Virus record (IMG/VR): IMGVR_UViG_3300033555_000001
Coordinates: 160,001-224,000 of that record
DNA length: 64,000 bases
Strand: one strand, 5' to 3'
Origin: a virus
Taxonomy: Duplodnaviria; Caudoviricetes
In this document: piece after piece, positions 20,857-26,175 of the stretch
Position numbering within the stretch: position 1 is the stretch's first letter
How the letters are laid out: each line of letters opens with the position of its first letter
The notes under the pieces: model-generated
Told to the model about the DNA's origin: nothing
Databases searched by the model: none
The model's input: the letters and a program-made list of their open reading frames with translations, nothing else
Translations under genes and position numbers: made by a program

Positions 20857-23775
20857 TTAGCCTCGTCTGAGGAGTTGATTAGTAAACTGTTCTGAATCAG
20901 CAAATCTAACTGCAGGACGCATGGCTAGCAGCATTGCGTCCGTGGCGTCTGCGTTTCGGGTTTCAACTGCTAGGTTATCACGCATGACTTGCAACATGCT
21001 TGTTAACACTATCATCATATCAGTATTTGTAGGTGTACCAACTGCAGGAACCTCTTTTGCTGCGACTGGTGGCGGTTCAATTGTATTTACCGTAGCCGGC
21101 ACAACAGCTTTTGGTATCTGAACCTGCGGCTGGCCCATGATTGCCTGTGCATCTCCGATTAGGGTTGATGCGCTGAGTGCACCGGCTTGGGCACTTGAAA
21201 ACTTTACTTGTGCCGCTGTTGCCTTAGTTGTAGCTTCAGTTGTTGCTTTTTCTGATTCAGCGGCGGCTTGTTGAGCGCTTTTACCCATTTTCTTAAGTGT
21301 TTTAGAACTATCGTCCCACAGCATACCCATAGCATTCATGTTTTCTGTTGAAGACTTTTCAAACGCCTCACCGCCGCCCTTTAAGTCTTTTACAAGCTGC
21401 GAGTCGTTGCTTAAAAACAAACCAAGCACGCTACCAAGGCCACTAAAGAGCCCGCCAAAAAAATGCTTAACCATTGCGTTTGCGCCCGCAACAAAAACGT
21501 CAAACTTGTTCTGCAACCAGCCGCCTGCGCCGGATCCAAAGACATAACCAAAAACGTCAATTAAAAAATTAGGAATTGCCGTTAAAAAGGCCGTAACAAC
21601 TCCGCCTACTCTGTTAAAAAAGCCACCGCTTGGATTTAATGCAATCGCCATTTCACCCGTAATTGCCTCTTTTATACCATCTATAATTCCAGCTATAGGC
21701 CCAAAAGCTTTGGCCGCGACCTTTAACCCGCCTATAATAGTGCCAATGCCGCCGGTTAGAGCGCCCGCGGTGCCGGCAAACACACTTCTGATTGCCGCTA
21801 GTGCGCCGTTAGAAGAGTTAATGGCCTGCACCCCGCTAATAGACGATTGCACCGCTCGAGGAATACCCGTAAGACTCGTGTAGAGGCCACTGGCGCCAGA
21901 TTTAATAGCCGCCAGTGGATTTAATAGCGTAGAAAGAACTGAACCGGTACCTTGTGCTACTTTAGCCAGCGCTCCAGTGGCTCCAGCGGCGCCACTGGCA
22001 CCCTGTGCGCCGGTTGCTAGTGCTCCAGCGGCTCCTTTGATACCTCCGCCGGTCAATAGAGATCCCATTAACTTGACTATTGGTCCACGGAATAGGGTAA
22101 GCAGTACGCCGCCAACCGCAGCTCCAATAGCAGGCACAATACTTTTTTGTATGCCCTCAGTCCATGCGGTTAACTTACCAACAGCTCGACCAAAAGAACC
22201 TACTGACTTACCAAAATCAGCGTTAGCCGTAGCGGGGCCGCTGTCAGCTGCAAGTGCCGCGGCATCGCTGGCCTTCCCAACTTGGCCAAGCTTTGTGGCA
22301 TCAATTTTTGCCCTCAAGTCTTCAATCGCGTGCTGCATGCCTAAATTACCGTTATTTGCCGCCTCTGCATACAGCGCATTTATTTTCTTAGAAAATTCGC
22401 CCTTGCGAGCGACCAATTCCTGGCTTTCTGCTCCAGTAATTGCAGTACCTTTAAGGCCAAGTTCGGTTATTCGCTGCGCATTTCCAGTATCGCCAGTAAG
22501 TGCGCCAAGGTTTAGGATAGCAGCGCGCTGGTCTAATCTTTCTGTAACTGTTGCTCCGCGTGCGGCAATAAGCGCATTACCAAGCGCTGTTGCTGCCTCG
22601 CCGGTTAAACCTAACCTGTTTCCAAGTGTTCTGATCTGTATCAATTCCTGCATTCGCGCCTGACGCTGAGCTGGTGCCAAGCCCAACATCTCACGCTGCA
22701 CCTGTTCATTCTTGCCAAGGCCGTCTACAACTTTTGCAAACTCATCAGTAGTAAGCAGAGTAGAAGCACGCAGATCTGAGAACGTTTTAATTTGTGCGTC
22801 TACAGCGCTACCAAGATCGCTGTTAAGAATACCAAATTCAGTACCGGTAGAGGCCAGTGCAGCCTGGAATGTTCGCGCTTCAGCTCCAAAGACGCCAATT
22901 GTTGCCAGCTGGCCATCGGCGGCCGAAATTAATTTATCGTATTCATTCAGACTGCCCTGACGCGCGGCGGTGCTGGAGTTCTCACGCACCATTTCGGTGT
23001 ACTCTTTTAACGACATGCCGGCCCTGGCCGCAAAGAACGACAGATCCGCCAAGTTACCGGCCGAGCCCAAGCCAAGGCGGGCGAGCGTCAAGTAATCAGC
23101 GGTTAATTTTGTTGTTATGTCAATAAGGCCTGAAAATACGGTAACAACTCCACCCGCAACAGCGCCAAGGCCTGTAAATCGTCCCAACATTTTGTCAACA
23201 GTGGTGCCAAACGCTGTAGTAGTACTGTCTAATCGCGTAGGCACTGGCCTGATCGCGCTATCTGCACCAGCCCGGCGGCGCATGCGCGCCTGTAAAATTC
23301 GGGCGGCTTCCTCGGTCGGCGCGTTAGAAGCGGCTCGCGGCGTTGCTGCTGCAGCTGCACCGTTTAAACCGAGTCCTTTTAATCTTGTGGCTGCTCCGCG
23401 CAACACGCCCATGAGCGAGTCAATTAAACCACTGCCGGTACCGCCGGATGTTGGTGTAGCCCCACCCTTTGCCGCGGTAAGTGTACCTTTAAATTTGGCC
23501 ATTTCAGAGGCAAGGGAGCCAAATCCGGTGGTTGTGCGGCCAACTGACGTGTTTAAGCTTACTAAGCTTTTATTCAGCCCGAGCAGTGCGTCATTTGTAT
23601 TCTTAGCTGTTAAGGCAATAGCTGTAAAAACTCGGGTGCCGGCGCGAATAGCTCCAGCGTTTTTTGCCTGCTCTGCTTTGTCTGCTGAAGATGGAAGCCG
23701 CCCGCCCGAGCCCGCCATTGCATTGCTGAGCAGTGTTTTGATATTTTCTAGCGTTTTAAGGATTTGTTCATCCAT
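20857..23775 (-). CDS. Putative tape-measure protein, 972 aa
   Basis: Long Ala/Gly-rich helical protein with hydrophobic stretches; transcribed divergently from gp26/gp51-like genes. Confidence 0.6.
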   Translation of the reverse strand: MDEQILKTLENIKTLLSNAMAGSGGRLPSSADKAEQAKNAGAIRAGTRVFTAIALTAKNTNDALLGLNKSLVSLNTSVGRTTTGFGSLASEMAKFKGTLTAAKGGATPTSGGTGSGLIDSLMGVLRGAATRLKGLGLNGAAAAATPRAASNAPTEEAARILQARMRRRAGADSAIRPVPTRLDSTTTAFGTTVDKMLGRFTGLGAVAGGVVTVFSGLIDITTKLTADYLTLARLGLGSAGNLADLSFFAARAGMSLKEYTEMVRENSSTAARQGSLNEYDKLISAADGQLATIGVFGAEARTFQAALASTGTEFGILNSDLGSAVDAQIKTFSDLRASTLLTTDEFAKVVDGLGKNEQVQREMLGLAPAQRQARMQELIQIRTLGNRLGLTGEAATALGNALIAARGATVTERLDQRAAILNLGALTGDTGNAQRITELGLKGTAITGAESQELVARKGEFSKKINALYAEAANNGNLGMQHAIEDLRAKIDATKLGQVGKASDAAALAADSGPATANADFGKSVGSFGRAVGKLTAWTEGIQKSIVPAIGAAVGGVLLTLFRGPIVKLMGSLLTGGGIKGAAGALATGAQGASGAAGATGALAKVAQGTGSVLSTLLNPLAAIKSGASGLYTSLTGIPRAVQSSISGVQAINSSNGALAAIRSVFAGTAGALTGGIGTIIGGLKVAAKAFGPIAGIIDGIKEAITGEMAIALNPSGGFFNRVGGVVTAFLTAIPNFLIDVFGYVFGSGAGGWLQNKFDVFVAGANAMVKHFFGGLFSGLGSVLGLFLSNDSQLVKDLKGGGEAFEKSSTENMNAMGMLWDDSSKTLKKMGKSAQQAAAESEKATTEATTKATAAQVKFSSAQAGALSASTLIGDAQAIMGQPQVQIPKAVVPATVNTIEPPPVAAKEVPAVGTPTNTDMMIVLTSMLQVMRDNLAVETRNADATDAMLLAMRPAVRFADSEQFTNQLLRRG

Positions 23776-23847
23776 CCTGGGTGTCCGGTAAGCCCTTAAC
23801 AGGGCAGCGTAAATAGGTGATCTATTTAGATAAGAGGACTACGTCAC

Positions 23848-24636
23848 ATGTCTGACACTCAAAACCCGCTGCTGGCCAAGATTAAATTGCCAGGCCGCAC
23901 ATTCCAGCTCCCATCCCGTGGTGCAATGTACAACAATGGTGAATTAGCAGCAGATTCGCCAACCGGCGAAATTCAAGTATATCCGCTAAGCGCTCTTGCT
24001 GAAATAAATTTAAAGAACCCTGATTTGCTGTTTAACGGCCAGGCATTGGTTGCTGTGCTGAATGAGTGCGTTCCAGCAATTAAAAAGCCGCTAGACATGT
24101 TTGGGCGAGATGTTGACGCGCTGCTGTTCTTCTTGCGACTAGCAACGTACGGCCAAGAGTATCGGATTGAAGTAAAGCACGATTGCGCAGAGGCTAAACA
24201 ACACGCCTATGCGGTTAATTTAGAAGAAGTAATCCAGCGCATGGTATTTCTTGACCCAACAGTTATTGCCAGTAAACAGACGGTGGTGCTGTCAAATGGC
24301 CAGACCGTTTATACTCGCCCAATGAAGTTCAGCGATATTATTGCGCTCTTTCATAAGAGCGGCAGCAAAAAAGAACTTACCCCAGATGACATCAAAGAAC
24401 TTGCTGTTACTAATCTTATGTCAATGATCGAGCGAGTTGAGGATATTACTAACGCAGCTATGATTGAAGAGTGGGTGCGCACGCTTACGACTCCAATGTT
24501 TAATCGAATTACTGAGGCTGCAAACGAGCTCAACAGTTGGGGTCCTGAGCAAGTGGTAGAAATCAAGTGCAAAGACTGCCACGGAACAATGCGCGTAGAG
24601 CTGCCGCTGAATCCTGTATCTTTTTTCACCGAATGA
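23848..24636 (+). CDS. Baseplate/tail assembly chaperone (gp26-like)
   Basis: FQLPSRG, IQVYPLSALAEINL, CKDCHG and LNPVSFF motifs. Confidence 0.8.
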   Translation: MSDTQNPLLAKIKLPGRTFQLPSRGAMYNNGELAADSPTGEIQVYPLSALAEINLKNPDLLFNGQALVAVLNECVPAIKKPLDMFGRDVDALLFFLRLATYGQEYRIEVKHDCAEAKQHAYAVNLEEVIQRMVFLDPTVIASKQTVVLSNGQTVYTRPMKFSDIIALFHKSGSKKELTPDDIKELAVTNLMSMIERVEDITNAAMIEEWVRTLTTPMFNRITEAANELNSWGPEQVVEIKCKDCHGTMRVELPLNPVSFFTE

Positions 24637-24863
24637 TTTTGGATGGCGATCGCACCAAAATCATAAACATGATCGATAGAATGTCCCTGGATGTCAAGGC
24701 GCTTATTCAGTGCGCACTTGATATTGCAACACATACTAGAGGCGGCGTGCCGTACGAGACCGCACTTAACATGTCAGCTTTTGAGCGTGATCTGGCAATT
24801 GAGGGAATTAATAAGAGATTAGAGGCTGCGTCTAAGTCTCCATTTGGTGGCATGATGATGTAA
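24633..24863 (+). CDS. Hub assembly catalyst gp51-like / second tail chaperone ORF
   Basis: ATG overlaps the gp26 stop (ATGA); YETALNMSAFERDLAIE resembles the gp51 motif. Confidence 0.65.
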   Translation: MILDGDRTKIINMIDRMSLDVKALIQCALDIATHTRGGVPYETALNMSAFERDLAIEGINKRLEAASKSPFGGMMM

Positions 24864-24864
24864 T

Positions 24865-24892
24865 AAAAGGGGATCTTATAAGATCCCCTTTT
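24865..24892. terminator. Bidirectional intrinsic terminator
   Basis: Perfect 28-nt palindrome AAAAGGGGATCTTATAAGATCCCCTTTT between convergent genes. Confidence 0.85.
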
Positions 24893-24924
24893 CTTTTATT
24901 CGGCATTTAGGTTAATGTCAAGTA

Positions 24925-26175
24925 CTACGCCGTAAGACGAAGGTTTAATTTCTTCATGATTTCTGGCAGCCGATCCAAATACTGCTGAGGCACGCCATCT
25001 AGCCCATCATGCACCATAATTCCATGCTGATCAACAGCTTCCCAGAGCGCATATCTGGCGCGGCGTTCCCACGCAAAGTACCCACTGAATACCGATTTTA
25101 TATTTTGCCTGTTAGGCGCACGCTTGAGCAGTCCAAGACAGGCGTATTTTCTGGCAGCCGAGAACTGCGCAGCAATTCGCTGCAGGCGAGCACCAATTAA
25201 CATTAACTCAGACGTAGTAGCGTGTGGCGCAGCTTTGAGAATAATATCAGCGGTGAGTGAAAAGCCCGATCCGTTGGTTAGTAGTGTTGGGGAAATCTTT
25301 GAACCATTAGCCAGGCTCATGAGCACTTGCTTGATGGTACCGCGGTATTGATCAGTATACGGGTGCTGCAAAATCTGTAAACACAGCTCTTCCCTAAACG
25401 ATTCTTTATCTTCAAGCAGCCGCAACAAATCTGGAAACATCAGCCGCAGCGCGTTAGATCGATCGTGAAATGCTACTTCCAAGTGCTCCATTAAAAACTG
25501 CACATACGCAGAGTCAAGATCAATTCCCTGACCAAAGAGCATTTCTCTGAGCCAACCAGGCCAGGTTTCAACCGCGGCGATTGGCCACACTGAAGTATCT
25601 CGTAGCTGCAATTTACCACTGCGTGCAAAATAAAAGTTTATTTCTGGTGGCTGCCGTAATAACCAAATAAGCTGTGGGATAATTTCTGGCCGGCCGGTTG
25701 ATAACAGCCGGTTAATTATTACTGACTGATTGAGATTGGGCTGCAGATAGACTTTTGAAATAGCCGCATTTTCCGGCCTGACTCCTGGCTCGTAGTGCAG
25801 CTCAGTGGTTACGGCGTTAACCAGTTCTAAATCTGTGCGACTCAGTGTGCGAGGCACAAGAGTGCTCAGCTCCATGTTCTCTTCGCCAAGATTAAACCCA
25901 AGCTGCTTTATGGTGAAAAAGTAATCAAGGGCCGGTCGGTAATCGCGTACTTGATCCCTGAGATCCATTAGCCGCACTTGTACTTCACAGAAGCCCCGCG
26001 GCTTGCCGGATTTAATTGCTCCACGATACAAGTTCGCAAGCCATAAGATTAAGTCCTGGCGAGCCTCAATTTTTCCACGATGCAGTCGCTGCAGATCAGG
26101 CCAAAACTGCGTCCAGTGCAGGGGGTGATTGTGTGGCAAAGCGCCGGTGATGTTTAGCTTGTATGGACGTGTCAT
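24925..26175 (-). CDS. Minimal family-A/T7-RNAP-superfamily polymerase-like protein, 416 aa
   Basis: Motif A-like IDLDSAYVQF (D219), motif B-like RGTIKQVLMSLANG, motif C-like MVHDG (D390). Confidence 0.55.
   Translation of the reverse strand: MTRPYKLNITGALPHNHPLHWTQFWPDLQRLHRGKIEARQDLILWLANLYRGAIKSGKPRGFCEVQVRLMDLRDQVRDYRPALDYFFTIKQLGFNLGEENMELSTLVPRTLSRTDLELVNAVTTELHYEPGVRPENAAISKVYLQPNLNQSVIINRLLSTGRPEIIPQLIWLLRQPPEINFYFARSGKLQLRDTSVWPIAAVETWPGWLREMLFGQGIDLDSAYVQFLMEHLEVAFHDRSNALRLMFPDLLRLLEDKESFREELCLQILQHPYTDQYRGTIKQVLMSLANGSKISPTLLTNGSGFSLTADIILKAAPHATTSELMLIGARLQRIAAQFSAARKYACLGLLKRAPNRQNIKSVFSGYFAWERRARYALWEAVDQHGIMVHDGLDGVPQQYLDRLPEIMKKLNLRLTA

Follow-up and report, generated by a model that had tools for sequence, protein, structure and literature searches.

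Can a single phage gene of the gp26/gp51 family supply both a short and a C-terminally extended protein through a programmed −1 ribosomal frameshift? The question is raised by a locus in a 64,000-nt stretch of DNA (hereafter, the window), positions 160,001 to 224,000 of the IMG/VR virus record IMGVR_UViG_3300033555_000001, which is 310,728 bp long, derives from an uncultured phage and has a CheckV completeness of 87%. At this locus, a gp26-like open reading frame (ORF) overlaps a small ORF in the −1 frame (Table 1). A preliminary description of the window had proposed that slippage at a canonical, in-phase T TTT TTC heptamer, through which the −1 frame is open (..FFHRMILDG..), fuses the two ORFs into a protein of about 340 residues, and that the pair is divergent from a tape-measure-like gene. 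The heptamer and its phase, the open frame and the divergent orientation are all as described, and the computed length of the fusion is 338 residues. The proposed frameshift itself is supported by the heptamer, by the −1 peptide, by start codons missing in several lineages, by a hairpin that covaries in the window's clade, and by the co-linear alignment of the fusion with T4 gp51 and natural fusion proteins. Given these comparisons, we consider it very likely that the one gene yields a short and a long protein through programmed −1 frameshifting.

In the mechanism we envisage, most ribosomes would read the gp26-like frame to its stop codon and release the 262-residue short form, the counterpart of T4 gp26. 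We infer that a minority would slip back one base on U_UUU_UUC, such that the two tRNA-Phe in the P and A sites pair anew with UUU UUU and reading continues in the −1 frame. The product would be the 338-residue long form, whose 78 additional residues would correspond to the C-terminal extension of T4 gp51 (Gp51_C). A hairpin beginning 5 nt downstream of the heptamer probably pauses the ribosome in the clade to which this phage belongs.

The slippery heptamer and its conservation

The 262-residue protein matches Pfam PF12322 (T4_baseplate; 38.6 bits against a cut-off of 24.5, E 1.2e-9) and phrog_150 ('baseplate hub'; E 1.2e-10). Its closest relative is in Ralstonia phage RsoM2USA (46% identity), itself a jumbo myovirus like the phages with further relatives, among them Xoo-sp13, Stenotrophomonas CM1, Serratia BF, Pectobacterium CBB, RaK2, 121Q, Salmonella Munch, PA5oct, Atu_ph07, Sinorhizobium Phosso, Salicola SCTP-2 and one Vibrio phage. 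In an alignment with nine relatives and T4 gp26, C241, C244, F259 and F260 are invariant; conserved features are two Cys pairs and a C-terminal Phe-Phe. The gene ends AAT CCT GTA TCT TTT TTC ACC GAA TGA (N P V S F F T E stop), so that the heptamer T_TTT_TTC at the Phe-Phe has the X_XXY_YYZ phase of the gp26-like frame.

A heptamer in a single genome proves nothing, and its significance comes from comparison across loci. We fetched 17 loci from GenBank (16 counted) and 37 from IMG/VR, added cyanophage S-RIM50 and Aeromonas phage phiAS5, and scored 54 loci; the CMSTMSU locus, an UNVERIFIED record with a split gene, was left out of the counts. All 54 have NNT TTT TTY in phase at the invariant Phe-Phe, as TTTTTTC in 49 and TTTTTTT in five. 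The preceding residue varies (S, encoded by TCT or AGT, V, A, H, N, R, Y, D or T), yet its codon always ends in T. Given the amino acids and local codon usage, the joint probability of the heptamer across 24 lineages of less than 60% identity is 10^-11.3. Conservation thus exceeds what Phe-Phe coding requires, a check that the preliminary description had suggested. It reaches down to 16-25% protein identity and covers RaK2-, PA5oct-, RsoM2USA- and Atu_ph07-type jumbo phages, IMG/VR contigs, the cyanophage and phiAS5 (genus Chrysonvirus). Within the window, TTTTTTY sites are under-represented (31 observed against 71 +/- 11 expected from dinucleotide shuffles), in keeping with slippery runs being avoided in general other than at the single conserved site.

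Homologs encoding the Phe-Phe with non-slippery codons had been named beforehand as a finding that would speak against a frameshift. This check came out in favor of the frameshift: relatives with the small −1 ORF are always slippery, whereas the heptamer is missing from T4-type phages in which gene 51 is separate (Konradin, GoldenSnicker and Aes508), and some of these also lack the Phe-Phe; the codons at such gene ends, that of T4 included, are TTC TTT, TTT GTT and TTC CTT. A further arrangement was observed in the phiW-14-like Pseudomonas phage Cygsa01 (L066:1572-2482), whose gp26-like gene ends ...SIFT with the non-canonical ATT TTC and is followed, from a TAATG overlap, by a 57-residue Gp51_C-like ORF (phrog_634, E 9e-12). 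In that lineage the extension may be expressed separately, or slippage may occur at a non-canonical site.

The −1 extension as counterpart of the T4 gp51 C-terminus

In the window, the −1 frame is open from 24 codons 5´ of the site to the stop codon at 24861-24863 and reads ..FFHRMILDGDR.. across it. Tandem slippage would give ...SFF/HRMILDGDR... (the slash marks the junction), that is, 260 + 78 residues, and the predicted tryptic peptide spanning the junction of the long form is VELPLNPVSFFHR. The −1 peptide measures 58-82 residues from site to stop in all 54 loci (58-64 in S-RIM50 and phiAS5 against 78 in the window) and is not interrupted by a stop codon in any of them. In 41 of the 54, the −1 frame opens no more than three codons before the heptamer. 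The peptide carries a conserved motif from its first residue, FF/R-x-R-L-L...P-E-E-I...MRGG.SYE...ER, including the stretch 5´ of annotated starts. The conserved C that closes the heptamer also opens the conserved Arg codon of the −1 frame; in the five TTTTTTT loci, the extension starts with F, Y or W instead. None of the 17 GenBank records of relatives that we inspected annotates a frameshift: the records of RsoM2USA, PA5oct and RaK2 leave the −1 region unannotated, others give a shortened mini-ORF, and each of the 17 either has a separate 'hypothetical' or 'gp51' mini-gene or is blank at this place.

Comparison with T4 places this extension. In the T4 genome, gene 25 comes after gene 26, whose full-length paralogue, gene 51, is oriented divergently from it. 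Both T4 proteins match PF12322 end to end, with gp51 consisting of the matching residues 1-201 plus about 48 extra C-terminal residues. T4 gp26 ends ...EFFELL, its Phe-Phe encoded by the non-slippery TTC TTT, and stops where the 0-frame product stops, just past the Phe-Phe. A profile of 39 transframe products aligned by hhalign to residues 4-249 of the gp51 family (Prob 94.7, E 5.8e-8), crossing the junction, where FF-R-x-R-L-L...E-I corresponds to F-K-L-L-x-N-P-D-E-I of gp51 (F-(K/R)-L-L...P-(D/E)-E-I overall); a C-terminal Y...M.P.ER is also shared. In addition, phrog_634 ('baseplate hub assembly catalyst') matches residues 147-246 of T4 gp51 (E 1.2e-23) and, from profile position 58 onward, the −1 peptides of S-RIM50 (E 1.6e-28) and phiAS5 (E 1e-14) from their second residue. 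The window's own extension lies near 'putative Gp51' clusters with PF28602 (Gp51_C) by Atlas features (score 0.91, 175 shared features). The small ORF, previously called gp51-like, is thus a counterpart of the C-terminal extension of T4 gp51 and not of gp51 as a whole.

Proteins that carry both parts in a single frame are also found in nature. An exhaustive hidden Markov model (HMM) search with the extension profile returned 613 proteins, and about 20 of the best 150 are natural proteins of 319-351 residues in which the extension is C-terminal to, and in frame with, the PF12322 domain. Their junction is non-slippery (S-F-R-x-K-I-L). Contig L071 (820-2744; Logan SRR5080639_831221) carries tandem PF12322 genes, a 294-residue short gene followed by a 346-residue in-frame long one. 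The short gene of this contig ends ...TSFFND, with TCT TTT TTC, but a stop follows after a single codon in its −1 frame; the slippery site resembles a relic that outlasted duplication and fusion.

The frameshift arrangement is present in RaK2-, PA5oct- and Atu_ph07-type jumbo phages, cyanomyoviruses, phiAS5 and many uncultured phages. We tentatively suggest, at somewhat less than even confidence, that the −1 frameshift is ancestral and still predominant in the gp26/gp51 family and possibly undescribed in these groups, that T4 genes 26 and 51 and the tandem paralogues of L071 derive from it by duplication and fusion, and that many 'hypothetical' mini-ORFs and 'gp51' stubs are therefore mis-annotated halves of one recoded gene. 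Apart from this suggestion, the probable frameshift, tandem short and long paralogues, and the divergent genes 26 and 51 form a natural series of three solutions to one need, and in practice the frameshift corrects the annotation of the mini-genes and blank regions in relatives. We also considered whether the extension belongs to the P2 GpE family (PF06528), but the Atlas score of 0.89 fell below the 0.9 line and hmmscan did not confirm the match. Members of PF06528 ('GpE family phage tail protein') are, we presume, small ORFs beside P2-type tail assembly chaperone genes; were the link true, it would suggest common ancestry of myovirus chaperone frameshift extensions.

Ribosomal frameshifting weighed against other explanations

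The stem-loop 3´ of the heptamer in the window has a folding energy of −12.3 kcal/mol (z −3.0), with one of 200 shuffled sequences folding as well, and it sequesters the ATG at 24633. Close IMG/VR relatives retain this stem-loop, with compensatory changes in three pairs. Over the 24 lineages, the 60 nt that follow the heptamer are somewhat more stably folded than shuffled sequences (mean z −1.5, with several lineages below −2.5). A different pairing was noted in an enterobacterial jumbo group (L004, L006, L009, L010, L017, L019, L020, L024, L028, L031 and L035), in which the U run can pair with GAAGAA 27 nt away. RNAalifold found seven pairs for it in alignment A7, with no covariation, and since GAAGAA belongs to Pro-Glu-Glu codons, this pairing is probably a by-product of protein conservation.

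The small ORF could also encode a separate protein, a free Gp51_C-like peptide of 76 residues made by termination-reinitiation at ATGA, where its ATG overlaps the TGA stop, and the heptamer would then be mere Phe-Phe codons. An ATG does lie within one or two codons of the gp26 stop in the window, its close relatives, Phosso, Atu_ph07 and 121Q, many GenBank records of relatives carry separate small genes, and the non-slippery ATT TTC of Cygsa01 goes with a TAATG overlap. This start is not conserved, however: the −1 ORFs of RsoM2USA and PA5oct lack ATG, GTG and TTG throughout codons 1-45, the first start codon in RaK2 and L041 is at codon 29-30, and a Shine-Dalgarno sequence precedes the −1 ORF in almost no locus. 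The peptide 5´ of the late starts is still conserved and matches gp51. Furthermore, Phe-Phe does not need the T that ends the preceding codon in every locus, natural relatives are fused in frame, and in this phage the hairpin covers the ATG. We regard two separate proteins as unlikely; a small free peptide might additionally arise in this phage by independent initiation at ATGA, but this cannot account for the family-wide pattern. These observations support translation of the −1 frame from the slip site, rather than from a start of its own, across the family.

A homopolymeric T run might alternatively act at the level of transcription, with RNA polymerase losing one U (or adding two) such that part of the mRNAs encode the fusion in frame. 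The run is nine T long in RsoM2USA and seven in four other loci. Bacterial RNA polymerases need runs of about 8-9 or longer to slip to any appreciable extent, whereas 49 of the 54 loci have only six T, closed by the conserved C, and a covarying hairpin at 5-nt spacing fits ribosomal pausing. The phase of the heptamer is neutral here because Phe-Phe fixes it. Overall, transcriptional slippage appears very unlikely. That the heptamer and the open −1 frame are a product of chance, or a relic without function in this phage, has next to no probability in our view: a single genome would be insufficient to exclude it, and the short gene of L071 illustrates that a relic heptamer can persist, but conservation across the 54 loci at such low protein identity, with an extension that is never interrupted, argues strongly to the contrary.

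Several points nevertheless weigh against programmed frameshifting between a short and a long chaperone. The ATGA overlap means that a free 76-residue peptide could also be made in this phage. A second PF12322 paralogue is still conceivable since the record, in which the gp26-like gene is the only one, is 87% complete. Neither PHROG nor Pfam directly matches the extension in the window itself, and the extension alone aligned weakly with gp51 by hhalign (P 0.0055, at gp51 residues 221-248). No family-wide RNA structure was found 3´ of the heptamer, and none of the public RNA sequencing runs contains the locus of this uncultured phage. The gene adjoins the tape-measure-like gene on the opposite strand, in contrast to the classical position between the tube and tape-measure genes. 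Finally, the fold scores are middling, in the grey zone of Z below 8. The two best matches in a structural search of 48,161 PDB chains were Bacillus subtilis YqbN (3klu; Z 6.9, root-mean-square deviation (rmsd) 3.3, 85 aligned residues), which we take to be a tail assembly chaperone of the XkdN family, and 2ob9, the tail assembly chaperone of HK97 (Z 5.8, rmsd 3.5, 95 aligned); that both belong to one rare class is a point on the side of the proposed reading.

Predicted function, known systems and layout of the locus

If both forms are made, they would act, by analogy with lambda G/G-T and P2 E/E+E', as assembly chaperones for the tape-measure-like protein and the tail or baseplate hub and would not be part of the virion. 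An AlphaFold2 model of the transframe product, built with the natural in-frame fusions as alignment and an X at the break, has a predicted local distance difference test score (pLDDT) of 84 and a predicted template modelling (TM) score of 0.79, with the extension forming a helical hairpin (pLDDT about 80-90). The model matched BFVD models called 'baseplate hub assembly protein, T4-like' (E 4e-16, TM 0.64-0.75), and Foldseek gave no match in the PDB. T4 gp26 and gp51 have been termed hub assembly chaperones (PMC3004832). On virion membership, the observations are indirect and come from two relatives only: the published virion mass-spectrometry table of CBB contains the tape-measure-like CBB_251 but not the gp26-like CBB_250, and the PA5oct record has an ESI-MS/MS (electrospray-ionization tandem mass spectrometry) mark on the neighbor gene but not on the gp26-like gene. 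With respect to CBB (L055, KU574722.1), the GenBank record calls CBB_250 a 'structural protein' even though it is missing from the virion table, which has CBB_247 and CBB_251, and the text of the CBB paper apparently writes 'CBB_250' for the gp5-like CBB_240.

The presumed client is the product of the neighboring 972-residue ORF. This protein has no Pfam or PHROG match, and its Atlas feature matches, mostly to tape-measure clusters (TMP_3, PhageMin_Tail and TMP; score 0.94, with a low shared-feature count), are a lead only. Its RaK2 orthologue is annotated as similar to tape measure protein, and mass spectrometry has identified the orthologues in CBB and PA5oct as virion proteins. The analogy suggests that the chaperones could act on this neighbor; a complex prediction for the short form with residues 1-700 scored 0.00, which speaks neither for nor against binding. 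We nominate no tube partner because a T4 gp19-type tail tube gene is absent from the Pfam matches in the genome record.

Judged by its sequence, the site is a recoding site of the lambda G/GT type. In the lambda and P2 systems, ribosomes produce the long isoform when they slip into the −1 frame at a heptamer that lies a few codons ahead of the stop, in P2 also on a T run; these frameshifts were reportedly described by Levin in 1993, by Christie in 2002, and by Xu, Hendrix and Duda in 2004 (works cited in PMC12859696). The window gene resembles them in the N-terminus common to the predicted short and long isoforms, the heptamer near the stop and the location beside a tape-measure-like gene. It differs in an N-domain of 260 residues with two Cys pairs, compared to roughly 100-140 residues for the classical chaperones, and we found no HMM-level similarity of the window proteins to the classical chaperone families. 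T4 shares the PF12322 domain and the co-linearity described above but has two divergent paralogous genes and no slippery site, in place of the single recoded gene here. Cyanophages such as S-RIM50, and some other phages, have the same three elements, a gp26-like gene, an in-phase T_TTT_TTC and a −1 ORF annotated as a small 'gp51' (phrog_634, PF28602); these ORFs match phrog_634 directly, whereas the window extension is linked to the family via profile alignment, synteny, Atlas features and natural fusions only.

Part of this picture is established. As summarized in PMC10885494, Vladimirov, Gautam and Davidson (2022; Virology 566:9) describe T4-like tail assembly chaperones as a short gene and a longer fused gene, and PMC12846349 cites the same paper for poly-T slippery sequences in 'TAC-N genes of T4-like phages'; the two summaries do not fully agree on the poly-T sites. 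By these accounts, the idea of gp26/gp51 as a G/GT-type chaperone system, which the preliminary description had offered without knowing of a precedent, was already published, and because T4 gp26 and gp51 were identified as tail assembly chaperones in 2022, the frameshift site is probably not conceptually new. Both the G/GT-type −1 frameshift mechanism and the chaperone identity of gp26/gp51 are thus known already. We found no description of a gp26/gp51 frameshift in these phages in the open-access literature, and how widely the frameshift occurs, and how it relates to the two genes of T4, may well not have been spelled out yet. Through this comparison, myoviruses of the T4 and jumbo types would fall under the rule known from lambda G/GT, by which tail assembly chaperones exist in a short version and in one with a C-terminal extension, and PA5oct, RaK2, RsoM2USA, CBB and the cyanophages provide cultured systems for the frameshift, the role of the extension, and hub and tape-measure assembly.

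Table 1. Features of the gp26-like locus, in coordinates of the window
Feature	Coordinates	Strand	Basis or remark
Tape-measure-like gene, 972 aa, presumed chaperone client	20857..23775	-	ORF list; divergent from gp26-like gene
T4-late-promoter-like TAAATA	23810-23815	+	Read from sequence
Shine-Dalgarno AGAGGA, 9 nt 5´ of ATG	23833-23838	+	Read from sequence
gp26-like 0-frame gene, 262 aa, short form (T4 gp26 counterpart)	23848..24636	+	Pfam PF12322, phrog_150
Slippery heptamer T_TTT_TTC at invariant Phe-Phe, in phase	24621..24627	+	Sequence and conservation in 54 loci
−1-frame extension, 78 codons and stop; C-terminal domain of predicted 338-aa long form (Gp51_C counterpart)	24627..24863	+	
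Stem-loop, candidate frameshift stimulator, 5 nt 3´ of heptamer	24633..24664	+	Folding energy, covariation
Intrinsic terminator, 12-bp stem and T tract, 2 nt past −1 stop	24865..24900	+	

The TAAATA upstream of the gp26-like gene may be a late promoter. The −1 extension belongs to the transcription unit, as the position of the intrinsic terminator just after the −1 stop shows. Convergent on this terminator is a 416-residue ORF (24925-26175, minus strand) with no Pfam or PHROG match. A nucleotide search of a phage collection gave no match, and the only public sequencing run that contains the locus is the source run, a DNA run from an ice metagenome. The divergent layout of the gp26-like and tape-measure-like genes recurs in most of the jumbo relatives.

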